Origin: Cytophagaceae bacterium
GTDB taxonomy: Bacteria; Bacteroidota; Bacteroidia; Cytophagales; Cytophagaceae
Direction: 5' to 3'
Assembly: GCA_029237685.1 (NCBI GenBank)
Contig: JAQZBV010000002.1
Coordinates: 3,423 to 67,422, forward strand
Length of the DNA stretch: 64,000 nt
Part shown: piece after piece, positions 4,909 to 20,126 of the stretch
How the letters are laid out: each line of letters begins with the position of its first letter
Numbering within the stretch: the first letter of the stretch is position 1
The notes under the pieces: model-generated
Told to the model about the DNA's origin: nothing
The model's database searches: none
What the model saw: the letters and a program-made list of their open reading frames with translations, nothing else
Made by a program: the position numbers and the translations under genes

Positions 4909-6306
4909 ATGCCTCACCGGTTCTACATACTGTTCAGTATTATTGTCCTCTCATTAGGAGGATGCAAAACAGCTTTGCAAACCCTGGCACCTGAAGAGAA
5001 GTATGAGGAAGTAGATTTTTCTCCTCAAGTATCTTCTTTCAGTATTCCGCTTGATTTTTCTATTCCTGAAATGCAGGCTTTGGCGAATAAGTACACGGAG
5101 GGCGTGTTGTACGAAGACAAGAACATGGAAGACGATAATTTCATGGTTAAAGTCGAGAAGTACAGCCCCATTACCTTATCTCTCTACGGCAATGAAATTC
5201 AATACCGTGTACCCTTGAAAGTTTGGGTGAAAGGCGGTACATCGCTCAGTGCGCTGGGTTTCTCCTTGTCTGATGCAGAAGAAGCCGAAGGTTCACTGGC
5301 TTTGATCTTTCGTACCAAGGTTGACTTCGATGCGTTTTGGAACATACAGACCACCACTCGTTTCATCAGTTATGAATGGTTAGTGCAACCCAAATTTTCT
5401 ATTCCTTTACTAACAGTTCCATTCAAAATCGTAGCAGACCGGATGATCAAAAGTCAGCAAGCCAGCATTGCCGCGATCATTGATGAACAGGTAAGAAAAA
5501 ACGTAGACACACGTAAATACATCGAAACAGCCTGGGATTACATGCATCAACCCATTAACCTTTCTACTGATCCTCCTACCTGGTTAAAATTACAGCCGAA
5601 AGAATTATTCGTCTCTCCTTTTACTTCCGATGCGCAGCATTTATATGTCACCATAGGATTAAAAGCGATCACGGAAACCGTGATCGGCAAACAACCTGTA
5701 TTGGCTCGCTCTAATTTACCCAATTATAAAGTAGAGAAGCAGCAATCCCCGGCATACAACATTCAACTCGCTGTAAACATCAGTTACGAGGATGTGACAG
5801 AGATGTCTCGTAAATACCTGAAAGGACAAGTGTATACGTTCAGTAATGGCAAGAAAAAAATAGTCATCGAAGACGTAAGCTTTTACGGCAACGCGGAAAA
5901 GATGGTAGCGGAAGTCCTATTGTCCGGAAGCTTGAACGGTAAAGTTTATTTAAAAGGATTGCCTGTATATGATTCCCTTTCCAGAAAAGTGGTCTTCAGT
6001 CAATTGGATTTTGACTTGGATACCAAAAATAAGTTAACAAAATCAGCGAATTGGCTGGCGCATGATATCCTGGTAAAAAAGATGGCGCCGTATTTTTCTT
6101 ATTACATCGGAGATCAGCTGGACAGTGCCGCTGTAGAAGCAAGAGCCAATTTAAAGCGCAAGCAATTGCATCCTAATTTTATCGTAGACGGAACATTGGA
6201 GAAATTGCAACCGGCGGATATTGTATTGACCAAACAGGGCATTATAGCACTCGTGAATGCAAAGGGGGTGATACGCCTATTTGTTACCGGATTGGATAAG
6301 TATTGA
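4909..6306 (+). CDS. Lipoprotein of unknown function (DUF4403-like, assignment unverified)
   Basis: 465-aa ORF with a signal peptide and lipobox-like LSLGGC. Its length and composition resemble Bacteroidota DUF4403 proteins; this is from memory only. Confidence 0.6.
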   Translation: MPHRFYILFSIIVLSLGGCKTALQTLAPEEKYEEVDFSPQVSSFSIPLDFSIPEMQALANKYTEGVLYEDKNMEDDNFMVKVEKYSPITLSLYGNEIQYRVPLKVWVKGGTSLSALGFSLSDAEEAEGSLALIFRTKVDFDAFWNIQTTTRFISYEWLVQPKFSIPLLTVPFKIVADRMIKSQQASIAAIIDEQVRKNVDTRKYIETAWDYMHQPINLSTDPPTWLKLQPKELFVSPFTSDAQHLYVTIGLKAITETVIGKQPVLARSNLPNYKVEKQQSPAYNIQLAVNISYEDVTEMSRKYLKGQVYTFSNGKKKIVIEDVSFYGNAEKMVAEVLLSGSLNGKVYLKGLPVYDSLSRKVVFSQLDFDLDTKNKLTKSANWLAHDILVKKMAPYFSYYIGDQLDSAAVEARANLKRKQLHPNFIVDGTLEKLQPADIVLTKQGIIALVNAKGVIRLFVTGLDKY

Positions 6307-7200
6307 TTGCTTGTGAAGCAGAAGAAGTTTGTACAGATCAAATAAAACGAGTGGTCCAGAAAACCAAATCAAGATTTTTTTAATGAGAGGTTGAGCAGGA
6401 AAAAGTAAGCGCAGGATAAAATGCAACCGGTATTCCCCCAGTTTCTTATAAGCGGCAAGCGATTTGAAATTAAGAAGCAGTTCCTCTCGAGTCAACATAT
6501 TGCCTTGCACAATCGTAGCGAGGGATTGAATGCTCTGTTCGGCTTTGTTTAAAAACTCTGTATTGTTTTCAAGTCCGGTATGAATGACCGCATTGTCAAT
6601 GCATTCAATTTTAATTTTTTGTTTCGTTGCAATGATCCCGAACAAGGTGTCTTCATGGCCGTATTGCGTGAGCCCCTCATTGAATAGAATGGTATTGAAA
6701 ACAGATTTATAGAGGCAGAAATTATTGGATTTGAATCCTTCTCCCTCTTTGTCCAGGGAAGAAGAGACTTCTCTGGTAGAGCCATACTTCCAATGCAGTT
6801 GCGTTTGTCGAGTTCTGTAGGCTGGACTGTAATGTGTGCCTCCGCATAAGATGGTATCGCTTTTTACAAGGCTCAAATAATAGGTAATGAAATCTACACG
6901 GATGGGTAAAGAATCTGCATCGATGAACAATAAAATTTCTCCCTTGGCTTGTGCCGCTAAGAAATTCCGGGCTGCAGAACGGCCTTTGTTGGCTTCAAAA
7001 TAGAATAAACAAATCTCCGGTTCATGGAGTAAATCCACATTCAGTTGTTTACCGGCTTCATTTGAACCGTCTTCTACCAGAAGGATTTCTATGGCAAGAT
7101 TTTTATTCCTTATTTCCACCAACAACGATTCTACCAGCGGATGAACGTCAAAGTCCTTCACAGGTATGCAGATGCTTAAAATGGGTGTAGCGGTGGTCAT
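6277..7200 (-). CDS. Family-2 glycosyltransferase (GT-A fold)
   Basis: 307-aa ORF with motifs LSICIPVKD, LLVEDGS and LLFIDADS. Its 3' end overlaps the convergent upstream gene by 30 nt. Confidence 0.8.
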   Translation of the reverse strand: MTTATPILSICIPVKDFDVHPLVESLLVEIRNKNLAIEILLVEDGSNEAGKQLNVDLLHEPEICLFYFEANKGRSAARNFLAAQAKGEILLFIDADSLPIRVDFITYYLSLVKSDTILCGGTHYSPAYRTRQTQLHWKYGSTREVSSSLDKEGEGFKSNNFCLYKSVFNTILFNEGLTQYGHEDTLFGIIATKQKIKIECIDNAVIHTGLENNTEFLNKAEQSIQSLATIVQGNMLTREELLLNFKSLAAYKKLGEYRLHFILRLLFPAQPLIKKILIWFSGPLVLFDLYKLLLLHKQSILIQSGNK

Positions 7201-7274
7201 GGAGCTAATGTGTTGTAAGATGAAAAAAAAAGCCTATTAAGACAATTATTCATTCTGCTTTCCTCTCCAATTGG

Positions 7275-7282
7275 TATATTTG
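7275..7282 (+). promoter_or_regulatory. Candidate Bacteroidota -7 promoter box TATATTTG (TAnnTTTG consensus) upstream of the helicase gene
   Basis: Exact match to the published TAnnTTTG consensus, 17 nt before the TTG start. No clear -33 TTG element is present. Confidence 0.35.
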
Positions 7283-7298
7283 TTAAAATCATCGATGC

Positions 7299-10200
7299 TT
7301 GAAAGATCTCCTCAATATATTCCGAAACAGACTGTTAGACCTTTCCTCTGCCAATAGATCCGTTTTTTTGCCCAAGGTTTACAAGGGTAAATTTTCTGAT
7401 TTAAAATCTTGGGATTATTTATCGGCTCTTTCTTCGTTGGATATTGTAAAGGCCATGCTGGCCGGTAAAACGGTGATAAAAATAGCGGATGTCAAACACA
7501 TTCGACCAGATGATTTGGAAGTGGTATTGGAAGAAGCTAAAAAACTGATCCGTACCCGTCAATTGATTTTTGATGAAACAGGCAGTGCGGATTTTTACAT
7601 CGGCTGGCCATTTGTAGAAGGAGTATTAAAAAACGGAATGCCTTTACGTGCGCCATTGATTTTTTTTCCTTATCAATTGAAACAGGTAGGTCGGGAAGTA
7701 TTTTTGGAAAAAGGGGCATTGGATGAACCGTTTTGGAATCGGTCCTTGTTTTTGTCCTTGTCTTATTTTGAAGAGTATGCCTTTGATTCCGCCTGGTTAG
7801 AAACTCTTGTCAGTGGCTTGGAGGATAAACCGGATCAGGATTTTAGATTGGGCTTGTTGGAAGAATTAAAAAAACAAGGCTGGCATGCCGCGTTTGACCG
7901 GGAGTTTTTATCGGAAAATTTAATTCATTGCCTACCGGTTAACAAAGCCGACTTAGAATCACGCTATCCGGCAGGTACTTATAAGCTAAAATCTTATGCG
8001 GTGATGGGTTTGTTCCCTCAATCCGCTTCTTATATACATTCCGATTATGATTTCCTAAAAGAAAGCACTTCGGAACATACTTTAGAATCATTGTTTGCTG
8101 CGCAGTATCATCGCAATGAAGTAGGAAATAAGAATGCCACGATAGAGTTTACACCCTTGGCTGTAGACGGGTCTCAGGAAAATATCATAGCTCAGGTTTC
8201 TTCTGGTCAATCGCTGGTAGTACAGGGGCCTCCGGGAAGCGGGAAGACGCAATTGATCTGTAATCTTATTGCACAGTTTTTGGGCAAAGGGAAAAAAGTA
8301 TTGGTGATCTGTCAAAAGAAAGCCGCATTGGATGTGATCTATGAGCGTCTTCAATCGATCGAACTGGAGCGTTTTGTTTCCTTGTTGCACGACGCAGGTA
8401 CAGAGAAGAAGTTGCTGTTTGATAAAATTGCCGATCAGATTCAATCTTCTGAACAGTATAAAAATCAAAACATTCATCCCGATACCATTGTACTGGAAAA
8501 AGAATTCTCCAGGGTACAGTCTTCTATTGCGAGGCTGGTTGAGTTTTTTTCTAAATACAAACAAGCGCTATACGATACACAGATAGGAGGGGAAACGGCG
8601 CATGCCTTATACTTGTTGTCCAATAAACAACAGGCTGTCGTGAACCTGGACCTGGAATTTCAAAGCATACCTGCCAATGAAGTTCCCAATAAAAGCCTGG
8701 ATCTTGAACAGTTTTTATTTTACCATGCGGCTATTGAAAGCGATTTCGAATTGATTCATGCGGCGGTAAATCAGCATTTATCCATTGACGACAAGGAAAC
8801 CATGATCCGTTTATTGGATCAAATTCCATCGGTTCTTCATCAACTACAGGAATGGAACGAAAGAGAAAATTTACTCACGGCCATTGATCTCTCTTTTGCT
8901 TCATCCTGGATGCAGAAGATCAGAGTTTGGAAAAATGAAGCACTGGTTTTTCAACACCACATCAATGCTTCTGCGGTAGAAGAATTTTCAAAAGAACATA
9001 TTGTTCAATGGAGGTTAACCGTTAAAAAGGGTTTTATCCTTTTAAATCGTTTGGTGTCTCAGCCACCGGTAGAATTAACAGAACAGTGGAAGCTTCGCGT
9101 ACAGAAAGCTTCTCGAGGCGGATGGAATCGTTTGCTGTTTCAGGTTCATGTAGCCGTGGCTAATGCGCCATTGAAATTGTGGTTGCGCAGTAATAAGCTC
9201 GATACAAGCAAAGAAAACCTTGCTTTTTTAGTAGAGTTGTTTTCTACTATCGATGAATTGGATCAATTAAGAAGCAATTGGTCCACGCATTCTTTTCTTC
9301 AAACGAATCATGGGTTGACCGAGCGTTTTTTTGCAGAGCATTTGAAAGTCTTCGATCGCATCCATCAGGAATTGGAACGTGCATCGGATATACCCGCACT
9401 AAAGGCCTTATGGAGAACGACTCCGTTGTTTAAAGAGCGGTTAGAGAACATGCTGTCGATCGTTCAGGAAAGACACCAAACTTTGTCTCCTTATTTCGAG
9501 CATTGGAAACCGAAGACGGTAGACCGCTTGTTCTCAGAGGAAGCGTACAGGTTACAATGGCGTAATTTTGTGACGCAGCGTTTCGAACGATGGTTGGGTT
9601 ACGAGCAATTGAAACGAAACCTTGATTTGTCTTTGTTCACTTCGTTTCATAAAGTGATTCGCGAAGTAACGGGAGATAAGACTTTAATTGTTGACACCTG
9701 GAAACAATCTGTATACCGTGCCTGGATTGAAGAAAAAGAAAAAGTATATCCTATTCTGAAAACGGTTTCCACCCCCGAGTGGGAAATGAAAGAGCAGGAA
9801 TTGCAAACCTTGGTAGACAGACGCTACAGCCTTTCGTTAGAATTTTTGAAAATAAAATTACGAGAATGGGTGTATGCGGACATTCAGTACAACCGATTGA
9901 ATCGCCAGGTTACTTACAGAGACCTGAATCACCAGGTCACGAAAAAAAGAAATGTGTGGCCGGTACGCAAATTGATTGCCGAGCATCAGGAAGAAATATT
10001 GGATCTTATTCCGTGTTGGCTGGTTTCGCCGGAAACGGCATCGACCATTTTCCCTATGCAAGATCTTTTCGATCTGGTGATCTTCGATGAAGCCTCTCAG
10101 TGTTTTGTAGAAAAAGCATTTCCTTCTTTGTTCCGCGCCAAACAAGCGGTAGTCATTGGCGACGACAAGCAATTGAGACCAAGCGATCTGTACCGTGTCC

Positions 10201-11207
10201 GTTATAAAAGTGAAGACGAAGAAGAAGAGATTGATTACGATGTAGAATCGTTGCTGGATTTTTCTTCTCGTTATTTCCCTTCCAACATGCTCACCGGACA
10301 TTACCGCAGCAAGTCAGAAGACTTGATCCGTTTCTCGAATGAACATTTTTACAATGACCGTTTACGCATCATTCCTGACATCACCTCTGCCGGTGAGCAA
10401 GCGTTGCAGTATATAAAAGTAGAAGGGCGATGGATCAACAATACCAATACAGAAGAGGCACTGAAAGTGGCCGAGTTAGTACAAGATTTGTTGTTCACTC
10501 ATCCCGGTAAAAGTATAGGGATCATTACCTTCAACTATCCACAAGCGTTTTTGATCAGAGATACATTAGATTCGGCAGACTTTGTATTACCGGATGATTT
10601 GCTCATCAAGAACATAGAAAACGTACAAGGCGATGAACGGGACATCATTATTTTCTCTTTGGCCTATGCCAGAAATAAAGAGGGGAAGATCGTAATGCAG
10701 TTCGGTAGTTTAAGCCAGGACGGAGGAGAGAATCGTTTGAATGTCGCCATTACCCGAGCGAGAGAAAAAGTCATTGTCGTGTCCAGTATTTTACCGGAAG
10801 ATCTTCGCGTAGAGAATAGCAAGAACAAAGGACCTGAACTATTGAAGCGTTATATGCAATTGGTTTATGAAACAAGTGCTAAAAAGGAAAACAGAAACTT
10901 GTTTGTTCAACCCAACATTCGATTTGAAAAAAACAATACATTAAGCGAAGTCATCCTTCATACAAAAGATGATCAGTATGCGGCGGCTTATTTTTCAGAT
11001 TTGCAGGAAAAGCGTTTTCCCGAGCATTTGGTCTTTACAGATGATCAGCGTTATTTTTATTCCCCTTCCGTCACCGATTGGCATGCTTACAGTCCTAAGT
11101 TGTTTATTCAAAAAGGATGGAGAGCAGATCGTGTCTATGCGAGAAATTATTGGTTTGACCGAGAAAGATTTTTTGATCAGGTGCAGAGGGTAACTGAAAA
11201 ACCGTAA
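7299..11207 (+). CDS. Upf1-like SF1 helicase with DUF4011-like N-terminus and REase-like C-terminal tail
   Basis: 1302-aa ORF with a TTG start. The N-terminus has RLLDLSSANRSVFL. Helicase motifs are Walker A VVQGPPGSGKTQ (nt ~8220), motif II VIFDEASQC (nt ~10080), GDDKQLRP, VQGDERDIIIFS and RLNVAITRAREKV. The C-terminus has KGWRADRVYARNYW, resembling DUF559/DUF3320-type tails. Confidence 0.85.
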   Translation: MKDLLNIFRNRLLDLSSANRSVFLPKVYKGKFSDLKSWDYLSALSSLDIVKAMLAGKTVIKIADVKHIRPDDLEVVLEEAKKLIRTRQLIFDETGSADFYIGWPFVEGVLKNGMPLRAPLIFFPYQLKQVGREVFLEKGALDEPFWNRSLFLSLSYFEEYAFDSAWLETLVSGLEDKPDQDFRLGLLEELKKQGWHAAFDREFLSENLIHCLPVNKADLESRYPAGTYKLKSYAVMGLFPQSASYIHSDYDFLKESTSEHTLESLFAAQYHRNEVGNKNATIEFTPLAVDGSQENIIAQVSSGQSLVVQGPPGSGKTQLICNLIAQFLGKGKKVLVICQKKAALDVIYERLQSIELERFVSLLHDAGTEKKLLFDKIADQIQSSEQYKNQNIHPDTIVLEKEFSRVQSSIARLVEFFSKYKQALYDTQIGGETAHALYLLSNKQQAVVNLDLEFQSIPANEVPNKSLDLEQFLFYHAAIESDFELIHAAVNQHLSIDDKETMIRLLDQIPSVLHQLQEWNERENLLTAIDLSFASSWMQKIRVWKNEALVFQHHINASAVEEFSKEHIVQWRLTVKKGFILLNRLVSQPPVELTEQWKLRVQKASRGGWNRLLFQVHVAVANAPLKLWLRSNKLDTSKENLAFLVELFSTIDELDQLRSNWSTHSFLQTNHGLTERFFAEHLKVFDRIHQELERASDIPALKALWRTTPLFKERLENMLSIVQERHQTLSPYFEHWKPKTVDRLFSEEAYRLQWRNFVTQRFERWLGYEQLKRNLDLSLFTSFHKVIREVTGDKTLIVDTWKQSVYRAWIEEKEKVYPILKTVSTPEWEMKEQELQTLVDRRYSLSLEFLKIKLREWVYADIQYNRLNRQVTYRDLNHQVTKKRNVWPVRKLIAEHQEEILDLIPCWLVSPETASTIFPMQDLFDLVIFDEASQCFVEKAFPSLFRAKQAVVIGDDKQLRPSDLYRVRYKSEDEEEEIDYDVESLLDFSSRYFPSNMLTGHYRSKSEDLIRFSNEHFYNDRLRIIPDITSAGEQALQYIKVEGRWINNTNTEEALKVAELVQDLLFTHPGKSIGIITFNYPQAFLIRDTLDSADFVLPDDLLIKNIENVQGDERDIIIFSLAYARNKEGKIVMQFGSLSQDGGENRLNVAITRAREKVIVVSSILPEDLRVENSKNKGPELLKRYMQLVYETSAKKENRNLFVQPNIRFEKNNTLSEVILHTKDDQYAAAYFSDLQEKRFPEHLVFTDDQRYFYSPSVTDWHAYSPKLFIQKGWRADRVYARNYWFDRERFFDQVQRVTEKP

Positions 11208-11305
11208 AAAAAGGGTTTAGATATAAATCTTTAATTCAATAATCTATTTAATCGCTTGGTTATTAGTTGCTAAAGCTCGTTTTGATTATATTCGTATTGA
11301 TCAAG

Positions 11306-13525
11306 ATGTTATTCTGCACCATGACCTTACTCCTCGCACGACTCACTATTTTTTTATTGCTCATCCTAGGAATCGCTCCACTCAGCAAAGCGCAAACTAT
11401 TGCACCTTGTGGTACAGTTCCTCCCTCCGAAGAAAAATTGGCCCAATTGGAACGGCAGATGAGAGAAGTTTTGACCAAGCAATACAGAACCTCCAATAGC
11501 GGAATGACCTGTGTGCCTATCAAGGTGCACGACATACGCGATGATGCTGGTAATGGAGCTTTGAACATGACCATGTTGAACAGAGGCATTGCCAACCTCA
11601 ACTACCACTATGCGGCTGCTGGTATTGAATTTTTTTTGTGCGGCAGCATCAACACGGTGAACAATTCCATTTACTATGATTTTGACAGTCCGGAAGAGAA
11701 TACCTTAACGACTGTTATTTCTCCCAGAGTCACGAATGCGTTTAACTTGTACCTTACGAATACCGCTGCCAGCGGAGGAAGCGCCGTAGCCGGTTATGCT
11801 TACTTCCCAGCCAACAATGCGGTGACTACGGTATGTGTGATGGATAAATCGTACCTCGCGAATTCGCATAACGGTACATTGATTCACGAATACGGACATC
11901 ATTTCAATTTGCAACATACACACCGTGGTACAGAAAATGGCAATGCGGATGCCAATGCTGAGAATGTACCGCGTGCGGGCGCTGGCACCAATTGCACGAC
12001 TCAGGGAGATTTTCTGTGTGATACCCATGCTGATCCACGGGGTGCTACAACAAATTGTGTTTATACAGGAGGCGGAACAGATATCTTAGGGAATGCCTAT
12101 ACCCCTCCACTCGATAACATCATGTCTTATTATCCCGATAACTGCGGAGGACTTTTTACAGCGGGACAGTACAGTCGAATCGTTGCCGCACTTACGGTAA
12201 GACAAGGACACAGCGCTTACAATTTGTCCTGTGCGCCGACTGCGGTTACTGCACCGAGCGGTGTTACTTCTACTCAAGTGAGCAACGCTGTTATTGTCAA
12301 CTGGACAGACAATGCCGCCAACGAAAGCGGATACCTGATTGAACGTTCGACTACATCAGCCTCTGCTGGATTCGCTGCCATCATCATGGGTGGCGTGGCA
12401 CCTAATGTGACTACCTTCTCTGATAATTCTATTGCATCGAATACCACTTATTGGTACCGTGTCAAATCATCCAATGGCAATTGCAATACCTACAGCAATG
12501 TGGCTACTGTGACAACGGGTTTGATTTATTGTCTGCCGACTTACAATACTACTACTTATTGCTTAAATGCAACCATCAGCAATGTGACCATGGCTGGTTC
12601 TCCGGGATTCAATAATAGCTCTACCTGCAGTGGTGTAGCATATGCCGATTACACGAATAGCATTTCGGCAACTGTAGTAGCTGGTAGCTCTTATGCTTTT
12701 TCTATTACACGTTCAGCGAGCTATAACCGTTACTTGCAAGTCTATATTGATTTCAATCAGGATGGAGATTTCAATGATGCCAACGAAAAAATTCTTCCTG
12801 ATAATACCGCGGCGACTGCTGTATATTCCAGTTCTGTTACTATTCCGGCGACGGCACTCAATGGCAACACACGCATGCGTGTCATCATGAGAAACTTATT
12901 TACAATAACGAGTGCTTGCGAAACCAACATGGACTATGGCGAAGCGGAGGATTATAGATTAACCGTTACCGGTGGGGCTTTACCGGTGGGATTATTGTAT
13001 TTTACAGGAGTCTCTTTGCATGGCGATGTGCAATTGAATTGGGCCACTTCCTTTGAGCAGAACAATAAGTCATTCATCGTTGAAAAATCAATCAATGGTA
13101 CGGTCTTTTCTGTTTTGGATACAGTGGAAGGGAAAGGACATTCAGTGAGTGTAGAAAAATACATCTTGACTGACGCTCATCCTTTTGCTGCGGGTACTTA
13201 CTATAGAATCAAACAAGTGAATGATGATGGCTCTTACCAATATTATTCTACCATCTTAGTGAATAGTAAAGAGGAGGGTAACATCGTCGTTTATCCGAAT
13301 CCTGCACAGCATACGTTGAACTTAACGGTGCATGCTGTAGCGCCTTCTTTAATTCAGTACGATGTATTAGATTTTATCGGTAATATTCTATGGTCGGGTT
13401 CATTGACTGTTAATGCAGGTGGAAATAGTCATCCGATAAATATCGCGGCACTCGCGCCTGGTATGTATTACCTGCATGTGAAAACGGAGAGTAAGTCTTC
13501 TTTGCATAGAATTATAAAGCAGTAA
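11306..13525 (+). CDS. Secreted metzincin-like zinc metalloprotease with Fn3-like and GEVED-like modules and a T9SS C-terminal sorting domain
   Basis: Track ORF 11267-13525; start set at the first ATG (11306; 11321 is also possible), just before the hydrophobic signal. Zinc motif LIHEYGHHFNLQHTH. Fn3-like segment VIVNWTDNAANESGYLIERS...YWYRVKS. GEVED-like segment GEAEDYRLTV. C-terminal sorting domain VVYPNPAQHTLNL...GMYYLHVKTE. Confidence 0.8.
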   Translation: MLFCTMTLLLARLTIFLLLILGIAPLSKAQTIAPCGTVPPSEEKLAQLERQMREVLTKQYRTSNSGMTCVPIKVHDIRDDAGNGALNMTMLNRGIANLNYHYAAAGIEFFLCGSINTVNNSIYYDFDSPEENTLTTVISPRVTNAFNLYLTNTAASGGSAVAGYAYFPANNAVTTVCVMDKSYLANSHNGTLIHEYGHHFNLQHTHRGTENGNADANAENVPRAGAGTNCTTQGDFLCDTHADPRGATTNCVYTGGGTDILGNAYTPPLDNIMSYYPDNCGGLFTAGQYSRIVAALTVRQGHSAYNLSCAPTAVTAPSGVTSTQVSNAVIVNWTDNAANESGYLIERSTTSASAGFAAIIMGGVAPNVTTFSDNSIASNTTYWYRVKSSNGNCNTYSNVATVTTGLIYCLPTYNTTTYCLNATISNVTMAGSPGFNNSSTCSGVAYADYTNSISATVVAGSSYAFSITRSASYNRYLQVYIDFNQDGDFNDANEKILPDNTAATAVYSSSVTIPATALNGNTRMRVIMRNLFTITSACETNMDYGEAEDYRLTVTGGALPVGLLYFTGVSLHGDVQLNWATSFEQNNKSFIVEKSINGTVFSVLDTVEGKGHSVSVEKYILTDAHPFAAGTYYRIKQVNDDGSYQYYSTILVNSKEEGNIVVYPNPAQHTLNLTVHAVAPSLIQYDVLDFIGNILWSGSLTVNAGGNSHPINIAALAPGMYYLHVKTESKSSLHRIIKQ

Positions 13526-13543: not shown

Positions 13544-13627
13544 GGCCTGTCCCCTGACAGGCCGAAAGGTTTCGGTCTCAATTGCTGTACTTGTTATACA
13601 AACAGATGGTCTGTCAGGGGACAGACC
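13544..13627. repeat. Pair of inverted 20-nt hairpins (ggcctgtcccctgacaggcc at 13544-13563; ggtctgtcaggggacagacc at 13608-13627) between convergent genes; bidirectional terminator-like
   Basis: Read directly. Each unit is an 8-bp stem with a 4-nt loop. The two units are near-reverse complements of each other and belong to the TGTCAGG word family. Confidence 0.8.
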
Positions 13628-13649
13628 ATGGAGTAGTCAAAAAGTATTT

Positions 13650-15782
13650 TTATAAAAAAATGACTCCCATACTCGTGAAAAAATACACGATGCAAATCGC
13701 GTAACTCATTTTCCGGACATCCAATTTTTTCAATTCTTCCGGTTCGTAGATCGCATTGACGGCGATCACAATGCCAAAATTGACCAGTACAATAATGAAG
13801 GTGATCCAGAATAAAATATCCGCACGCGTCAGGCTGTCTGAAGATGGAGTAGAGGCGGAGAACGAAATGGAAAAGGCAACGATGGACATGAATACGCCAA
13901 TGCTGACTTCTCCCAAATTTTCAAAGGAGATATCTCTTATAAAAAGTAGCGTACAACTGATCAGACCAATCAGTATAAGGGGCAATACAATTTCCAGCAT
14001 GGGTTTAAGAACCTTGCGTCCGATTTCCAATCTGAAATAAATGTTCTTGAATTCGCTCAACTTGTCTTCGTCAATATCCGGATCGCCGTGCATGCCTCGG
14101 TTGATTTCGTTGTCTACGGTCACATAAAATTTCTCTTTGTTCCATTCCGTAATTTTAAAAGACTCTATTTTTTTATCGTCTTTGGCAAAACTCTTCTGGT
14201 CAAAAGAAATTTTTATTTTATCCGAAGGGTTTAAAATTTCTGCGCGGATGTAGATCTCCTGTTTGTCAAAAGGATATTTATCCAGGTTGTAGTTGACGTA
14301 GAAAATGCCCGATACCTTATACAACTTATAAACCGTAGAGCCATGGACTTTTTCAAAGATCAGTTCTTTGGAACTCTCACTTTGTTTCATGTTCTGAAAG
14401 ATGATGTGTTTCTCCGCATCCAAATTCGCTGAATCCAATTTCACCCAATAGTAAAAATCTGACGTAAACGAATTGCTGTTCATGTTGATGTCATAGATGT
14501 CGGCGATTTCCATTCCAAAAAATAAATTAGGAATGACTTCACGCCTTTCATTTAATTGCAATGGATAAGAATGCAGTTTCCCTGACGCATATTCTGTGAA
14601 ATACAATTCAGGCAATACGGTGAGTGTGCTGTCGTAGATGTAGAGTTCGTCTGTTTCTACAATAGTTTTTTCCGGTAAACTTCTGAAGTATTGAATGAAA
14701 TCTTGTTTGCGTAAGAAAGAAGTGTCCGGTTGGTATTCAAATTTATTTTTTATCATTTCCACCGCATCGTAGCAACGCTCCACAAACATACTGTGGTTTG
14801 GGTTTTCGAAATACAACGGATACTTTCGTTTGAATTTGTCGATGTCAAGTGTCATCTGTTTGGTCAGCGCATCGGTAGGATTACTGCAGATGATCAAGCG
14901 GTTGTTATTCTTATCTCCGAAGGTTTTGATCTCATCGTGATTCACAATATAGGAATGCCCGATGAGTTGGATGCTGTCAGATGTTGTATCAAGGTATGCG
15001 AGCAAATTGTTCCCGATTGCCGCATGCGTATTGAGGAGCGTCCAGGTGTTTTTCTCTGCGGGGTTTTTAGCATAGAAATCCGCCAGTTCATTGTATAGCA
15101 TACTGGAATCCTGCGCCTGAAATGCTTTGCCTTTTAGGGAAAATATTTTGTTTACCGTGATATTTTCTTTCTTTAATGCTTCCAGGTATAACTCGTGCAG
15201 CGGATAGTCTGTTTCAGATACCATGTTCACTTTTTTTACTTTGAGCACCTGCTTTAAGAAGGCCACCATGTCGAGTGGTGTATGGTCATGGCTTCCGGTA
15301 AAAACAACATTGTTGCCAAAGTCTTCCTTGTTCCTGTCGGCATTAATTGAGATGACGGGAATGTTCAGCGCTTTGATCGTTTGGCTGCACTCTTTCAAAT
15401 GCACACCCCAGGTATTGTCGATTACCAAAACGATAGAGGTATCTTGAGCAATGACTTTATAAATGGAGTCGCTGATTGCACCGGATTTTTCGCAGTCGAA
15501 TTTTTTTAGTTTTAAGGTGTGATGCGGCAAATCTACACGTTTGAGGTATTCGGATAATACCGCGTCATGAAGCAGATCAAAACGATTGAGGTCTTGTTTG
15601 TCTTTGGGTATGCCTTTGGAGGCATCCGTATAGCGACCAATGTAGGCGACGTATTTCGTTTCTTTTCCAATGTCATGTGAGTCATTGGCTTTTATTTTTT
15701 GATAGGTGTAGATGCTCGCTAGTGTGGCAAGGCACGCAAACGTGGTGAGTAATAAAAAGCGGTACTTTTTGAAAAAAATCAT
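13650..15782 (-). CDS. Pentameric ligand-gated ion channel (prokaryotic Cys-loop receptor homologue) with N-terminal type-I periplasmic-binding-protein-like domain
   Basis: 710-aa ORF. It contains FTSDFYYWVKLDS, the Cys-loop-equivalent NLDKYPFDKQEIYIRAE, pre-M1 FRLEIGRK, M1 EIVLPLILIGLIS, M2 VSIGVFMSIVAFSISFS, M3 ILFWITFIIVLVNFGIVIAV and M4 MSYAICIVYFFTSMGVIFL. The N-terminal ~330 aa show a PBP1/LIVBP-like beta-alpha alternation (LKLKKFDCEKSG...IVLVIDNTWG...IPVISINA). Confidence 0.8.
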   Translation of the reverse strand: MIFFKKYRFLLLTTFACLATLASIYTYQKIKANDSHDIGKETKYVAYIGRYTDASKGIPKDKQDLNRFDLLHDAVLSEYLKRVDLPHHTLKLKKFDCEKSGAISDSIYKVIAQDTSIVLVIDNTWGVHLKECSQTIKALNIPVISINADRNKEDFGNNVVFTGSHDHTPLDMVAFLKQVLKVKKVNMVSETDYPLHELYLEALKKENITVNKIFSLKGKAFQAQDSSMLYNELADFYAKNPAEKNTWTLLNTHAAIGNNLLAYLDTTSDSIQLIGHSYIVNHDEIKTFGDKNNNRLIICSNPTDALTKQMTLDIDKFKRKYPLYFENPNHSMFVERCYDAVEMIKNKFEYQPDTSFLRKQDFIQYFRSLPEKTIVETDELYIYDSTLTVLPELYFTEYASGKLHSYPLQLNERREVIPNLFFGMEIADIYDINMNSNSFTSDFYYWVKLDSANLDAEKHIIFQNMKQSESSKELIFEKVHGSTVYKLYKVSGIFYVNYNLDKYPFDKQEIYIRAEILNPSDKIKISFDQKSFAKDDKKIESFKITEWNKEKFYVTVDNEINRGMHGDPDIDEDKLSEFKNIYFRLEIGRKVLKPMLEIVLPLILIGLISCTLLFIRDISFENLGEVSIGVFMSIVAFSISFSASTPSSDSLTRADILFWITFIIVLVNFGIVIAVNAIYEPEELKKLDVRKMSYAICIVYFFTSMGVIFL

Positions 15783-15798: not shown

Positions 15799-16965
15799 TC
15801 AAATCAGTTTAGTGAAAAGGTTGTCGTGCGTTTTCTTATAAACACCGTATCGTTTGCAAAGGAAGTAAAATAAAACACAAGAGGTACTCCATATCAGATA
15901 CACGACAAGCAACGAATAGCCGATGCTGATGCGGTGTCCGAAGGGCATCCATTGTTCACTGCTTTCAGGATTGGTAAGGGTAAATAGGATAACAGAAAGA
16001 ATGTGGAAGAAATATAAATGCAGAATATAATAAAACATCGGTACTTGTCCGAAGGTTGCCAATACCGATGAAATACGTCCCTGTATTTTCTCTGCGAAGG
16101 CGAGCAATACAAACCCAATGCCTAGGGTGGCTAAACAATAATGAAGCGAGAAAGGATATTTGGAAACGTTGAAGAAAGAGATGATGCTTTGAGCGCTTGT
16201 TTCCTGCGGAGCGAATTGTTTCATGTCGCCATAACTATCCGTGAAGCGTAAGAGCACAAACAAGCTCAGACACAAAATGCCTGCAAGCAATAAACGTTTT
16301 AATCTTTTCTGAGCGGAGAAATTTTTTGAATACCAAGAGCCCATGAAATAACCCAATAGCATCACGGCAAATGCCGGCAGCAAGGGGTAGAGGATGAATA
16401 CAAAGAATTGATCGTTGATGGTTGTTTTGGAGGCCACATGCAGAAAGGACCAGCCCAACTTCGATGCGACCGATTGGTCAAAGGCAAGGTTGTCCAGTGT
16501 ATTGTGCAACACTAAAATAAGCAAAGCTATTACTCCTGACAGCCGTTTCGGCAAGTAAACAAATGCAGCCATCAATACCATGCTCCATCCGATCACCCAG
16601 ATCACGGCACCTAAAATGTGATTGGTGTGAATGGTAAATTGCCAGGCAAACTGTACGATGGTCAGTTCCAGGAATACCATCCACAGTCCTCTAAAGAACA
16701 CATAAGAAGAGGTCGCTGCCGCATCTTTCTTTTCCTGGTAGAGGGAAATAGAAATTCCAGCCAGCAATAAGAAGAGAGGAGCACAGAGGTGTGTGATCCA
16801 GCGCGTGAAGAACAAGGGTAAATTACTTTGCTGAAGGTCTTCCGGTGCAAATCGAAAAGCATCGATATGAAAAAAATCACGGGCATGATCCAATGCCATG
16901 AGTACCATGATGAGTCCTCTCACCACGTCTAAACTTGCAATGCGTGGAGAGCTTATAGGTTTCAT
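15799..16965 (-). CDS. DUF1624 / HGSNAT-like polytopic membrane acyltransferase
   Basis: 388-aa multi-TM ORF. The N-terminal RIASLDVVRGLIMVLMALDHARDFF is typical of this family. Confidence 0.75.
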   Translation of the reverse strand: MKPISSPRIASLDVVRGLIMVLMALDHARDFFHIDAFRFAPEDLQQSNLPLFFTRWITHLCAPLFLLLAGISISLYQEKKDAAATSSYVFFRGLWMVFLELTIVQFAWQFTIHTNHILGAVIWVIGWSMVLMAAFVYLPKRLSGVIALLILVLHNTLDNLAFDQSVASKLGWSFLHVASKTTINDQFFVFILYPLLPAFAVMLLGYFMGSWYSKNFSAQKRLKRLLLAGILCLSLFVLLRFTDSYGDMKQFAPQETSAQSIISFFNVSKYPFSLHYCLATLGIGFVLLAFAEKIQGRISSVLATFGQVPMFYYILHLYFFHILSVILFTLTNPESSEQWMPFGHRISIGYSLLVVYLIWSTSCVLFYFLCKRYGVYKKTHDNLFTKLI

Positions 16966-17594
16966 GGACGGGGAACAGGCAATCGGAAATACAGTTGATC
17001 AGAACCCTGACGTTTTTTATTCAACGTGGCAACGATCTGATGGTTTTCCTGTTCTTCCAGGGTTTTGTATTTCACCTGCAGGTATTTCAATACTTCAATG
17101 GCATCGTTATAACTAACGACCACAAACGGTGCTTCCGATGAGCCATCACCCGAACTCAATACACACTTTATAAAGAGGCTGTACTTTTGTTTGTTGATGG
17201 ATTCTTCGTCTGTTCTTTTGAGCGCGTAACAGGAAAAACTTTTTTCAAAATAAGCCGTGATGCTTACCGGATGAAAGGCCAATAAGGTATCAGCCAATTC
17301 ATAGGCTTGTATAAATTCCTGTAAGAGGTTATGGTCTTTGATGCGTACTTCCAGGCTGTCTATTAAATCAATTTGATAAGCCGGCTGATAAATGGAGCCA
17401 TAGTATAGGGCCAGGAAATCACTGCGCTGCAAGGTGCTGTCTGATTGCCTGAGTTTTTCAGCCAGCTCGCGGTAGTGTATTCTTCCGGCAGAGGAGGATG
17501 TTGTTGAGCCAATAGAGTCCGTGTTGATTTGTGCTTGCGCCGCAGAGAGGTGCAGGAAAAAAAATAAACAAACACAGACTAACGCTCTATTCAT
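16962..17594 (-). CDS. Secreted hypothetical protein (possibly DUF4919-like, unverified)
   Basis: 210-aa ORF with signal peptide LFFFLHLSAAQAQ. It has a 4-nt ATGA overlap with the downstream gene and an 8-nt overlap with gldH. Confidence 0.6.
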   Translation of the reverse strand: MNRALVCVCLFFFLHLSAAQAQINTDSIGSTTSSSAGRIHYRELAEKLRQSDSTLQRSDFLALYYGSIYQPAYQIDLIDSLEVRIKDHNLLQEFIQAYELADTLLAFHPVSITAYFEKSFSCYALKRTDEESINKQKYSLFIKCVLSSGDGSSEAPFVVVSYNDAIEVLKYLQVKYKTLEEQENHQIVATLNKKRQGSDQLYFRLPVPRP

Positions 17595-18063
17595 GTTTCA
17601 AAACACTGATGCCTACATCGCTGATGCCCGGTATGGTATCTTGACGCATGTACTGTTGGAGTTGTATGGTATACTTTCCTTTGTAAGGGAAAGTCATGTT
17701 GCTGTCCGATAAAATAGTATGGTCGTATTTATTCCCCCAGCCGCTGCCTTTCGGTTGGCCGCTTTTTTCATCAAACAAATACATGCCTTGTAATTTCGAC
17801 GATAGTGGTTTTCCTGCAGAGTCTAATAGGGTGCGCTTCACATACAAGTTGTAGTAAGGATAGTCCTTGGTATAACGCGCCAGGTACTGCAAGGTGTAAG
17901 TGCTTTTATTGTCCTCTATTTCTAAAGGAAATAAAAGCTTGTTTGATGAAAGCCATTCTTCATCCTCCACTTCTTTGTAATCATGAAATACTTTTCCTTT
18001 CTCACTGCATGAAAAAAGAAGTGCAACTATAGAAAAAAGAAACAGTTTATTTTTCATTCTCAT
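17587..18063 (-). CDS. gldH: Gliding-motility / T9SS lipoprotein GldH
   Basis: Track ORF 17587-18672 trimmed to ATG 18063 (MRMKNKLFLFSIVALLFSCSE: lipoprotein signal plus Cys). The product is ~158 aa. Its size, lipobox and position directly after the PSP1 gene match GldH. Confidence 0.8.
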   Translation of the reverse strand: MRMKNKLFLFSIVALLFSCSEKGKVFHDYKEVEDEEWLSSNKLLFPLEIEDNKSTYTLQYLARYTKDYPYYNLYVKRTLLDSAGKPLSSKLQGMYLFDEKSGQPKGSGWGNKYDHTILSDSNMTFPYKGKYTIQLQQYMRQDTIPGISDVGISVLKHE

Positions 18064-19726
18064 TTGACGATGAAGTATTGTCAGTAGGTTTGTTCGGATT
18101 AGGCTGCTGCGGTCTATTGTTGTTTGGCTGCCCATCCGGTTTATTACCTTGTTGGGGTCTTGGCCCCTTACCCTGGTTACCTTGCGGCCTGTTCGGATTT
18201 TGATTTTGCGGACGAGGCTGGTTTGGACGATTTTGCTGAGGCGGTCTTTGTTGACCTTCGGGTTTCGGCTGTCCCTGCACGTTTTCACGCTGTGCATTAC
18301 CTTCTCTCGGAGGTCTGTTTTGATTGGGATTTTGTGGACGAGGGGCTTGGCCTTCGCGGTTTTGTTGCGGAGGTCTTTGCTGTCCCTCACGATTTTGCTG
18401 CTGTGGCCTTGGCTGTCCTTCTCTATTTTGTTGTGGTCTTGGACCGCCTTCACGATTTTGATTTTGTGGTCGCGGCTTAGTTTGCTGTCCTTCTCTTGGC
18501 TGGTGTTCGGAACGATCCGGACCTGCAGGTCTTGTAGAGTTTGGATTTTGTGGTCTTGGTTGTCCGCCTTCCGCAACAGCCGCTGGAGCAGAACCGTCAG
18601 ACGGTTTCTTTTTCTTCTTTTTGCGTTTGTTTTTGTTGGCCTGAAATTTATCATCAAAACGAGCCAGTTCACTTTTTTCTTTGATGAACTCTGTGGTGAT
18701 TTTACTTTTCTCCTCGTCGTTGATCAAGTCAGAGGGTTTATTGCCGTCTGCATTCATCGCCTGAATATGGTTCACACGATCTACAGGGATAGCGATCCAG
18801 TTTGTCGGTTCGTCTTCGTACGAAAACCACATGATTTTTTTGAAGATGTCCGTTTTCTGTATGCTGGCTCTTCCTCTTTCTGTCATCAAAGGTTTTTCCA
18901 CTTCAGGAATGCCTTTCAAGGCATCCAAATAGGTATCCAGTTCATAGTTCAGGCAACATTTCAATCTGCCGCATTGACCGGAAAGTTTAGAAGGGTTCAG
19001 GGACAGGTTTTGGTAACGAGCCGCTGAGGTATTGACATTTTTAAAATCACTGATCCAGGTGGAGCAACACAATTCTCTTCCGCAAGAACCGATCCCGCCT
19101 AAGCGAGCGGCTTCATGGCGAAGACTGATTTGCTTCATCTCTACACGTACCTTAAATTCAGAAGCGAGCAATTTGATCAGTTCCCTGAAATCAACGCGTT
19201 CGTCTGCAGAATAGTAAAAGGTAGCTTTAGAGTTATCGGCCTGGTATTCTACATCCGTCAGTTTCATCTCCAGCTTTTGCTCGAGGATGATGTTGCGGGT
19301 ACGGAATACCGTCGTTTCTTCTCTGTTTTTGCTCAGGATGTATTTTTCAATATCCTTTTGCGATGCTTTGCGCGTGATGGTTTTTAACTGATCGTCGTTA
19401 TTGACCATTTTACGCTTCAGCTGCAAGCGCACAATTTCGCCTTGCAGGGCCACGTGACCCATGTGATAGCCGGAAGCCATTTCCACGACGACAGGATCGC
19501 CGGTATACAACTCAAGGGATTGAGTGTTTCTGTAAAATTCTTTGCGACCGTTTTTGAAACGAACTTCAACTACATCAAAATCTTTGGCAAGACCGATGCC
19601 CATGTTACTGAGCCAGTCAAAGGAGTTCAGTTTATTGCAACCACCTGTTGCACATCCTCCTGTTTTGCCACATCCTCCTGTCGTTCCGCAACTGCCACCG
19701 CCTGTTCCGCAAGATGAACAACCCAT
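18047..19726 (-). CDS. PSP1-domain protein (RicT/YaaT homologue) with long P/Q/N/R/G-rich C-terminal repeat tail
   Basis: 559-aa ORF. The N-terminus is Cys/Gly-rich (MGCSSCGTGGGSCG...CNKLNSFDWL). The PSP1 core includes CGRELCCSTW and CGRLKCCLNYE. A Lys run (KNKRKKKKKK) is followed by degenerate PRPQQNREGQ-type repeats to the stop. Confidence 0.85.
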   Translation of the reverse strand: MGCSSCGTGGGSCGTTGGCGKTGGCATGGCNKLNSFDWLSNMGIGLAKDFDVVEVRFKNGRKEFYRNTQSLELYTGDPVVVEMASGYHMGHVALQGEIVRLQLKRKMVNNDDQLKTITRKASQKDIEKYILSKNREETTVFRTRNIILEQKLEMKLTDVEYQADNSKATFYYSADERVDFRELIKLLASEFKVRVEMKQISLRHEAARLGGIGSCGRELCCSTWISDFKNVNTSAARYQNLSLNPSKLSGQCGRLKCCLNYELDTYLDALKGIPEVEKPLMTERGRASIQKTDIFKKIMWFSYEDEPTNWIAIPVDRVNHIQAMNADGNKPSDLINDEEKSKITTEFIKEKSELARFDDKFQANKNKRKKKKKKPSDGSAPAAVAEGGQPRPQNPNSTRPAGPDRSEHQPREGQQTKPRPQNQNREGGPRPQQNREGQPRPQQQNREGQQRPPQQNREGQAPRPQNPNQNRPPREGNAQRENVQGQPKPEGQQRPPQQNRPNQPRPQNQNPNRPQGNQGKGPRPQQGNKPDGQPNNNRPQQPNPNKPTDNTSSSNENEK

Positions 19727-20042: not shown

Positions 20043-20081
20043 AAAATACAGAAACAGAAACAGAGCGGAGAAACAGTATAA

Positions 20082-20126
20082 AAGAAGAAGGTCCGGCTTA
20101 TTGAGCCGGACCTTCTTCTTTTTTTA
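20082..20126. terminator. Intrinsic terminator hairpin downstream of purD (17-bp stem, 5-nt loop, U-rich on both strands)
   Basis: aagaagaaggtccggct / tattg / agccggaccttcttctt followed by tttttt. Confidence 0.8.

Follow-up and report, generated by a model that had tools for sequence, protein, structure and literature searches.

A divergent, mostly Bacteroidota clade of proteins that join a type-I periplasmic binding domain to a pentameric ligand-gated channel body

Pentameric ligand-gated ion channels, or pLGICs, are the archetypal fast chemo-electrical transducers, and their roles in bacteria are largely obscure. In this study, we analysed a gene on the minus strand at positions 13650-15782 of a 64,000-nucleotide stretch of DNA, referred to here as the window, from contig JAQZBV010000002.1 of a Cytophagaceae bacterium (GenBank assembly GCA_029237685.1). 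The obtained results showed that the gene product carries a type-I periplasmic binding protein (PBP-I) domain, the two-lobed Venus flytrap, N-terminal to the ligand-binding domain and the four transmembrane (TM) helices of a pLGIC, all within a single polypeptide. Each half is homologous to its respective family and, within a broad superfamily of PBP-I and pLGIC fusions, the window protein forms a diverged branch. The architecture has been known since 2005; what is new is a divergent, unannotated, mostly Bacteroidota clade, too diverged for Pfam. This clade, called the DNTWG clade below, bears three marks: DNTWG and NAD loops in place of the ligand contacts of the binding protein LivJ, acidic rings at positions -2' and 2' of the pore-lining helix M2, and an N-terminus that is probably tethered to the membrane. 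The gene and its domains are located as follows.

13650-15782, minus strand: complete PBP-I/pLGIC fusion gene, from the open reading frame (ORF), 114 homologous clusters and the AlphaFold2 model; stop codon at 13650-13652
15681-15761, minus strand: N-terminal hydrophobic helix (residues 8-34), from the AlphaFold2 helix and the N-termini of 55 family members
14553-15665, minus strand: type-I binding-protein (Venus flytrap, LIVBP/ANF-like) domain, residues 40-410, periplasmic, from Foldseek, Peripla_BP_6 and the translation
14013-14552, minus strand: pLGIC extracellular beta-sandwich, residues 411-590, including the linker from the N-terminal domain and the pre-M1 Arg589, from the AlphaFold2 strands and the HHalign alignment to GLIC residues 20-192
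13653-14012, minus strand: four-helix TM channel domain M1-M4, residues 591-710, with a short M3-M4 loop, from AlphaFold2 and the alignments to nAChR beta and ELIC/GLIC

The interval 13650-15782 was found to hold one intact, ATG-initiated ORF of 710 aa, stop codon included. An initial annotation, made from the DNA letters, had described it as a Cys-loop-type channel fused to a LIVBP/ANF-like binding domain; its coordinates and every peptide that it quoted were borne out by the translation, which contains FTSDFYYWVKLDS, NLDKYPFDKQEIYIRAE, FRLEIGRK, EIVLPLILIGLIS, VSIGVFMSIVAFSISFS and TPSSDSLTRAD. A search of 5.8 billion protein clusters identified 114 homologous clusters at 90% identity, nearly all of them full-length at about 700 aa and between 29 and 95% identical to the window protein. 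All of the members named by their source were called 'hypothetical protein'. When the word-indexed search was repeated with the family profile, essentially the same 114-protein set was returned, together with one new fragment.

The initial annotation had also called for a survey of the phyletic distribution of the fusion. Scanning one genome per GTDB species revealed relatives in at least 80 species, with 78 of the 80 matches spanning both halves of the protein. These species belong mainly to the Cytophagaceae and other Cytophagales, the Saprospiraceae, the Lewinellaceae and the Chitinophagales, with some from the Chlorobiota/Ignavibacteria. The nearest genome match was a metagenome-assembled genome (MAG) at 88% identity, and the sole cultured strain was Cytophaga aurantiaca DSM 3654 at 64%. 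Given that 114 homologous clusters and 80 species carry relatives, the layout is, on sequence conservation, far beyond chance and the gene clearly under selection. Homologues 32-55% identical were also located on contigs that had been assigned to MAGs of the Bifidobacteriaceae, Alphaproteobacteria, Armatimonadota and Thermoanaerobaculia (loci L016, L020, L024, L034 and L077); mis-binned Bacteroidota contigs are more likely here than a real presence in those phyla, and lateral transfer is a possible source. In one Saprospirales MAG (L053), the channel homologue was broken into two ORFs (5939-6196 and 6239-8143), which may point to a frameshift, to a pseudogene or to faulty assembly.

The full-length AlphaFold2 model, built on the family alignment, had a mean predicted local distance difference test (pLDDT) score of 88.1 and a predicted template modelling (pTM) score of 0.81. 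It presented, in order, a hydrophobic helix (residues 8-34), a beta/alpha alternation (41 to about 410), a set of strands (416-589) and four TM helices (592-612, 620-644, 653-678 and 690-709), the M3-M4 loop being about 5-11 residues long. The layout proposed initially, namely an N-terminal segment, a PBP-like domain, a beta-sandwich and four TM helices with a very short M3-M4 loop, therefore agrees with the model, apart from the length of the N-terminal domain, which is present but measures about 370 aa (residues ~40-410) rather than ~330. Mean column conservation was highest in the beta-sandwich (0.62), compared with 0.50 in the N-terminal domain. The junction between the flytrap and the beta-sandwich is itself conserved (S405, Q409, N411 and I417-P418-N419) and is modelled with a pLDDT of ~87-90, which suggests that the two domains are rigidly coupled.

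The N-terminal helix of the window protein is a putative signal anchor or signal peptidase I signal peptide. Many of the 55 members display instead a lipoprotein-type signal, in which the hydrophobic run ends in a Cys 8-12 residues before the first flytrap strand, whereas in the window protein, as in its nearest relatives, a long hydrophobic helix takes this place; that of the window protein looks uncleaved. The lipoprotein-type N-termini were noted in P0016, P0025, P0030, P0050-52, P0062, P0063, P0068, P0070, P0077, P0080, P0093 and P0108-P0113. The N-terminus of the flytrap is thus probably held at the membrane, by lipid or by helix, and this would imply a predicted placement of the flytrap beside the beta-sandwich and not floating above it. 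Lipid anchoring would be an unusual feature for the N-terminus of a polytopic channel subunit.

For the channel half, searches with the single sequence revealed little. Searching the PDB sequences with the window protein alone (phmmer) gave marginal matches to nAChR beta (E=8.6e-4) and an ELIC-GLIC chimera (E=2.8e-3). The initial annotation had named the lack of a significant pLGIC profile match as grounds for its refutation, and here the outcome was divided: the curated Pfam and NCBIfam models gave sub-threshold matches only, so that a family profile, fold search and transitive links were needed, and the profile built from the 55 members was significant, with E=7e-11 for ELIC and E=4e-9 for GLIC in a match that runs from the middle of the beta-sandwich through M4. 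HHalign aligned the family to GLIC with 95.8% probability (E=6.8e-9, 236 columns), pairing residues 422-676 with GLIC 20-274. A Foldseek search of the full model, which shows the beta-sandwich and four-helix bundle that the initial annotation had named as its fold check, recovered GLIC at E=3e-16 with a target TM-score of 0.72-0.75. With DeCLIC (E=4.7e-16), ELIC, sTeLIC and GABA-A included, the PDB matches lay at E~1e-16 to 1e-15 with target TM-scores of 0.63-0.75. These results establish the pLGIC identity of the C-terminal half, and the failure of the curated models is a matter of model sensitivity, not evidence against homology.

The residues typical of pLGIC gating were examined in the family alignment. 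The equivalent of the Cys-loop lacks cysteines, as had been claimed, and takes the form of a Pro-loop:

14247-14291, minus strand: Pro-loop YNLDKYPFDKQEIYI, the Cys-loop equivalent, from the family alignment, HHalign to GLIC and the translation

Within this loop, which reads Y503-P504-F505-D506, P504 and D506 are invariant in the 55 sequences, as are the pre-M1 R589, the M1 P601 and the M2-M3 P646. Judged from these residues (P504/D506, R589, P601 and P646), the gating hardware is intact and invariant.

The identity of the N-terminal half was established by fold. Modelled alone, the domain had a pLDDT of 89.1 and formed an alpha/beta structure with 12 helices in two lobes. Foldseek matched the full model to E. 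coli LIVBP (1z15) at E=2.5e-15 over 385 aligned columns. The N-terminal domain alone matched the Leu-bound ABC (ATP-binding cassette) binding proteins 4q6b and 4n0q and LivJ/LivK structures (1z15, 3td9 and 4gnr), as well as mGluR1/5, the fish taste receptors T1r2a/T1r3, GABA-B, CaSR and a urea-binding protein, all at E values of 1e-14 to 1e-12 and query TM-scores of 0.57-0.68. The domain is therefore a member of the LIVBP/ANF cluster of type-I PBPs, as was initially proposed, and its remote relatives pass the Pfam thresholds. The sequence signal of the window protein itself is fainter. Peripla_BP_6 scored 19.4 bits (E=9e-4), below its gathering threshold of 31.7, and matched 35 of the 55 members weakly (best E=1.3e-6). 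The sole significant match of the N-terminal-domain profile among the PDB sequences was pneumococcal LivJ (4gnr, E=0.002).

The breadth of the fusion became visible in an exhaustive HMMER search of 1.84 billion representative proteins with the full-length family profile, which reached distant relatives. It returned 136 matches at E<=1e-30, a number that rose to 934 at E<=1e-10 and to 2,877 at E<=1e-3, and proteins of 700-800 aa were matched continuously over both halves, in a single match, down to ~110 bits. Ten remote full-length relatives were scanned against Pfam. All ten passed the threshold for Peripla_BP_6 (95-162 bits, E 1e-27 to 1e-47) as well as for ANF_receptor (E 1e-15 to 1e-27), and Neur_chan_memb was found in eight, four of them above threshold. 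As these canonical relatives were recovered full-length in one continuous match by the family profile, the fusion was probably inherited by descent and not reinvented. Of the canonical fusions P0244 and P0257, the cyanobacterial one is publicly annotated only as 'ABC transporter substrate-binding protein' and the other as a branched-chain amino-acid substrate-binding protein. Annotation pipelines systematically miss the channel half of such proteins.

Fusions of PBP-I and pLGIC domains were described from genomes, in Magnetospirillum and Bradyrhizobium, by Tasneem et al. 2005 (PMC549065). The novelty that the initial annotation saw in a PBP module on a pLGIC is overstated, since that study had already described PBP-I fusions specifically, in alpha-proteobacteria. 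A later phylogenomic survey (Jaiteh et al., 2016; PMC4795631) deliberately trimmed the terminal domains and urged their study.

The pore-lining helix was then placed in the register of GLIC.

13851-13925, minus strand: pore-lining M2, residues 620-644, from the GLIC register (HHalign), column frequencies and the translation

In this register, the window protein has E621 at -2', E625 at 2', G629 at 6', M632 at 9', A636 at 13' and I639 at 16'. The 2' residue is Glu in 49 of the 55 members, Asp in four and Gln in two, and the aligned position is occupied by Thr in GLIC and Gln in ELIC. Position -2' is Glu in 35/55, and a further six members have Glu at -1'. The 9' residue is always hydrophobic (L, M, I or F) and the 16' Ile is invariant. 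F631, S638 and I639 are invariant, and the best-conserved residues of the membrane domain are those that line the pore or take part in gating. Across the superfamily, an acidic ring at the cytoplasmic mouth marks cationic channels and a Pro-Ala-Arg (P-A-R) motif anionic ones. The acidic rings at -2' and 2', together with the absence of a P-A-R motif from the family M2 where it was looked for, predict a cation-selective pore; on the same two grounds, an anion-selective pore was rejected for the DNTWG clade. The extra acidic ring at 2' is, in the alignments, a feature of this clade, and the canonical relatives, with Arg at 0', may differ in selectivity.

To locate the ligand pocket, residues were mapped onto LivJ. 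Direct HHalign of the N-terminal-domain profile to the single LivJ sequence gave a probability of 0.2%, and a bridge through canonical-clade relatives was used instead, with clade members, intermediate matches, canonical relatives and E. coli LivJ in one MAFFT alignment. The LivJ sequence used agrees with all 11 published contact-residue numbers, which were taken from PMC6983066. In the bridged alignment, the conserved residues of the N-terminal domain fall on the ligand-contact positions of LivJ. One such element is the loop that follows strand beta3.

15405-15419, minus strand: DNTWG loop (residues 122-126) after strand beta3, from conservation, mapping to LivJ L77/C78/S79 and the translation

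This loop replaces the 'GHLCSS' ligand-contact loop of LivJ; D122 and W125 are invariant, and N123, T124 and G126 near-invariant. The position of LivJ Ser79 is Ser in 10/10 canonical relatives and Gly126 in 17/17 sequences of the DNTWG clade, and that of Thr102 is Ser or Thr in 9/10 canonical relatives and Asp149 in 17/17 of the clade. The position of Glu226 is Asp or Glu in all ten canonical relatives and variable in the clade (S277 in the window protein). The position of Tyr150 is Tyr or Phe in 10/10 canonical relatives, and Cys78 and Tyr202 of LivJ correspond to Trp125 and His253 in the clade. The contacts by which LivJ holds an alpha-amino acid (equivalents of Ser79, Thr102 and Glu226) are hence not kept in the window protein or in the DNTWG clade. 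In their place, the clade shows a set of near-invariant pocket-loop motifs: DNTWG, (I/L)NAD, SExDY, LNxH, GH(A/S)Y and NPTDA. Among full-length proteins, 106 of 109 in the first set and 72 of 97 among the new representatives carried the form DNxWG. Invariant or near-invariant residues cluster at the C-terminal ends of the beta-strands (G49, D122-G126, N147-D149, E190/D192/Y193, N251/H253, G275 and D304/A305), and 40 positions of the N-terminal domain are at least 90% conserved.

As the canonical relatives keep the polar contacts of LivJ, they are plausible amino-acid sensors. Since the substituted positions and loops of the DNTWG clade are near-invariant, its pocket appears re-specified and then frozen, not decayed. 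With the three polar LivJ contacts replaced, a standard alpha-amino acid held as in LivJ is an improbable ligand. PBP pockets rich in Asp, Asn, His, Trp and Tyr are of the kind that binds sugars, amino sugars or amines, and the make-up of this pocket would suit a polar or cationic ligand of these classes.

The genomic neighbourhood was analysed for further hints. The channel gene is the last of a set of five on the minus strand.

20080-20122: strong bidirectional terminator upstream of the PSP1 gene
18047-19726, minus strand: PSP1-domain protein gene, first of the putative operon (PF04468, E=4.6e-29)
17587-18057, minus strand: gldH gliding-motility lipoprotein gene, in the putative operon (GldH_lipo, E=8.8e-34)
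16962-17594, minus strand: gene for a DUF4919 protein, in the putative operon, with overlaps of 4-8 nt onto its neighbours (PF16266, E=1.8e-21; synteny in 9 loci)
15799-16965, minus strand: HGSNAT_cat/NagX-like polytopic membrane protein of 388 aa, with a 16-nt gap to the channel gene downstream (PF07786, E=3.8e-17)
13606-13629, minus strand: terminator-like hairpin 21 nt past the channel stop codon, where the transcription unit probably ends

The order PSP1, gldH, DUF4919, NagX-like, channel is held together by overlaps of 4-11 nt and the one 16-nt gap. These tight junctions, with terminator-like hairpins at 20080-20122 and 13629-13606 bracketing the set, indicate that the five genes probably form one operon. 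The NagX-like gene lies directly upstream of the channel gene in 13 Cytophagales loci, in three of which the channel is only 43% identical. A phmmer search of this neighbour against the PDB HGSNAT gave no match, and its label rests on PF07786 membership. In five bacteria, among them the Cytophagales member Echinicola, glucosamine utilisation depends on NagX-family proteins, which have been proposed as periplasm-facing transacetylases (PMC9007349).

A different neighbourhood was observed in the Saprospiraceae and Lewinellaceae (L032, L035, L039, L053, L070 and others), where an S15 X-Pro dipeptidyl peptidase gene lies upstream (18 loci), a GWxTD protein gene downstream (25) and a POT/PTR2 peptide transporter gene nearby (13). 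Such neighbours hint at a link to peptide or amino-acid metabolism instead of amino sugars, and the two contexts together give a weak and conflicting hint to the ligand, amino sugars on the NagX side and peptides on the Saprospiraceae side. Across the 80 loci compared, no neighbour was universal, and lineages beyond the Cytophagales and Saprospiraceae/Lewinellaceae shared nothing. ABC-transporter genes accompanied the channel gene in none of the 80 loci, and the PBP domain therefore does not serve an importer; an obligate partner protein or ABC importer was rejected on these grounds. Chemotaxis or defence genes travelling with the channel gene were not seen in the loci compared, and a defence-system association was rejected after PADLOC gave no match for the channel or its operon neighbours. 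The channel looks like a self-contained unit.

Some features around the operon were noted in passing. The PSP1 protein has a C-terminal tail of ~200 aa with low-complexity repeats rich in Q, P, N, R and G (PRPQNQNREGG...), and several long spurious ORFs occur on both strands of this region (e.g. 17587-18672 and 18149-19027). On the plus strand, 11267-13525 encodes a secreted protein of 752 aa that combines Peptidase_M43 and a GEVED domain with a C-terminal sorting domain for type-IX secretion; the gene is convergent with the channel gene and syntenic in only 1/80 loci. Further out, 7299-11207 on the plus strand encodes a 1302-aa superfamily-1 helicase (AAA_11/AAA_12) that matched the PADLOC candidate defence protein PDC-S37 (E=2e-136) and Hhe (E=5e-70); the gene possibly serves in anti-phage defence. 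Its synteny is confined to the closest relatives (L001, L002, L007, L009 and L013).

We hold with moderate confidence that the window protein forms a homopentameric, cation-selective channel in which the flytrap closes on a small periplasmic molecule and gates the pore, or biases it, through the conserved linker. The gene product would be one subunit of a presumably homopentameric Pro-loop-type channel in the inner membrane, each subunit carrying a periplasmic flytrap that the conserved, non-flexible linker joins to the top of the beta-sandwich. A small periplasmic molecule would bind in the cleft between the flytrap lobes and cause them to close, and this closure would pass through the linker and the beta-sandwich to the interface of the M2-M3 loop and the Pro-loop. 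The pore would then open, or its opening would be biased, and the resulting cation flux would shift the membrane potential, possibly with Ca2+ entry, thereby providing a fast chemosensory signal.

A number of points weigh against this proposal. Flytraps usually work as dimers, and here five of them would have to act on a pentamer. The selectivity rules come from animal channels and GLIC and are only approximate. As conservation peaks in the beta-sandwich, gating could really lie with the classical orthosteric site and the flytrap act as a modulator only. The conserved residues of the N-terminal domain may line an interface between domains or subunits rather than the cleft. The Pfam Neur_chan models had no match in the window protein or in any of the 55 members, NCBIfam LGIC_1 reached 24.8 bits (E=1.3e-5) against a cut-off of 500, and TIGR00860 18.1 bits against 280. 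The N-terminal domain of DeCLIC is a flexible jelly-roll that only tunes kinetics (PMC12664993). Our literature searches, beyond whose reach Hu et al. 2020 lay, found no experimental study of a PBP-type pLGIC, in line with the initial annotation, which knew of none characterised.

In the main alternative, which we judge unlikely, if far from negligible, the channel is real and the flytrap has a structural, assembly or modulatory role, as does the N-terminal domain of AMPA receptors or DeCLIC, with gating by a ligand, protons or Ca2+ on the beta-sandwich. The higher conservation of the beta-sandwich (0.62 against 0.50), the loss of the canonical amino-acid contacts of the flytrap, and the behaviour of known prokaryotic pLGICs, in which gating runs through the extracellular domain (protons in GLIC, amines in ELIC) and the N-terminal domain, in DeCLIC, only alters kinetics, would all agree with it. 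It accounts less well for G126, D149, W125 and H253, which are invariant or nearly so across proteins 29-40% identical, the pattern of a retained and re-specified pocket, or for the 40 N-terminal positions conserved to at least 90%. The flytrap could also concentrate a ligand and pass it on to gate the channel at the orthosteric site of the beta-sandwich, a capture-and-hand-over scheme put forward for PBP-I/II and Cache domains, both as fusions and as operon partners (Tasneem et al. 2005; PMC549065). That both domains are conserved here speaks for this scheme; however, PBPs hold their ligand tightly and enclosed, and the linker, conserved and modelled with confidence, is a better match for mechanical coupling than for loose tethering. 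We know of no hand-over by a covalently fused flytrap, and regard the scheme as improbable here. A non-channel role, with a degenerate pLGIC body anchoring a binding protein or scaffold for partner signalling, the envelope or gliding, draws on the failure of the curated pLGIC hidden Markov models and on the putative operon that the Cytophagales gene shares with gldH and a NagX-like membrane protein. Set against the invariance of F631, S638, I639, P646, P601 and R589, an acidic 2' residue in 53/55 members, a fold that superposes on both open and closed GLIC, and the lack of any neighbour conserved family-wide, it is very improbable.

Within the proposal of a flytrap-gated cation channel, a more specific role can be drawn from the Cytophagales operon PSP1-gldH-(DUF4919)-NagX-like-channel and the part of NagX in glucosamine use. 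The DNTWG clade could be a functionally distinct receptor class whose flytrap has shifted from amino acids to an amino sugar or other cationic carbohydrate-breakdown product (e.g. glucosamine or chitosan oligomers), which opens a cation pore, possibly for Ca2+, and so acts through the membrane potential on gliding. We consider this a speculative suggestion with a slim chance of being correct. If true, nutrient sensing would be linked to gliding powered by the proton-motive force and type-IX secretion, and a gliding bacterium would possess an ionotropic chemosensory pathway.

Attention has been drawn to N-terminal sensor domains of prokaryotic pLGICs since 2005, and only that of DeCLIC, which has a different fold, has been examined; as of 2025, DeCLIC is described as standing alone among pLGICs in having an N-terminal domain that is partly characterised (PMC12664993). 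From a flytrap-pLGIC it could be learned how a clamshell sensor that is normally dimeric (mGluR, iGluR) drives a channel of five-fold symmetry, and such a protein would be a natural chimera of the two great neurotransmitter-receptor sensor-module families. The DNTWG clade looks tractable, with proteins of ~700 aa, a confident model, at least 80 species, the cultured strain C. aurantiaca DSM 3654, and point-mutation targets in both pocket and pore. It also exposes a systematic annotation gap, as its named members are 'hypothetical' and its remote relatives are mislabelled as ABC-transporter binding proteins. We therefore regard the gene as a good experimental target rather than a surprise.

A comparison with known systems places the window protein more precisely. 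By their published description, the fusions of Tasneem et al. 2005 from Magnetospirillum magnetotacticum and Bradyrhizobium japonicum have the same order of PBP-I, pLGIC beta-sandwich and four TM helices. The canonical fusion relatives keep the LivJ-type S79/T102/E226 as S, S/T and D/E, where the DNTWG clade has G, D and a variable residue, and their M2 carries Arg at 0' and lacks acidic residues at -2' and 2', in contrast to the two acidic rings of the clade. GLIC and ELIC share the beta-sandwich and four-helix fold, the Y/F-P-F-D Pro-loop, the pre-M1 Arg, the M1 Pro and the short M3-M4 loop, and GLIC also the Glu at -2'; they differ in having no N-terminal domain, in their ~15% identity, in a shorter loop C, and at 2', where Thr (GLIC) or Gln (ELIC) stands in place of Glu. 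DeCLIC, from Desulfofustis (PDB 6v4a, 7q3g and 9ftg), resembles the window protein in its channel body (E=4.7e-16) and in devoting about half of its mass to a large periplasmic N-terminal domain. That domain consists of two Ca2+-binding, highly mobile jelly-roll lobes, whereas the window protein has one two-lobed alpha/beta flytrap on a conserved linker; no jelly-roll of the DeCLIC type was seen in the window domain, which Foldseek matched to PBPs. LivJ and LivK have the same fold as this flytrap, but are soluble, feed an ABC importer and contact their ligand differently. The flytraps of class-C G-protein-coupled receptors (GPCRs) and of iGluR/NMDA receptors (mGluR, T1R, GABA-B, CaSR) use the same LIVBP-like fold as a receptor sensor (Foldseek E~1e-13, 10-12% identity). 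They act as dimers, and their output is a seven-TM GPCR or a tetrameric P-loop channel, where that of the window protein would be a pentameric Pro-loop channel.

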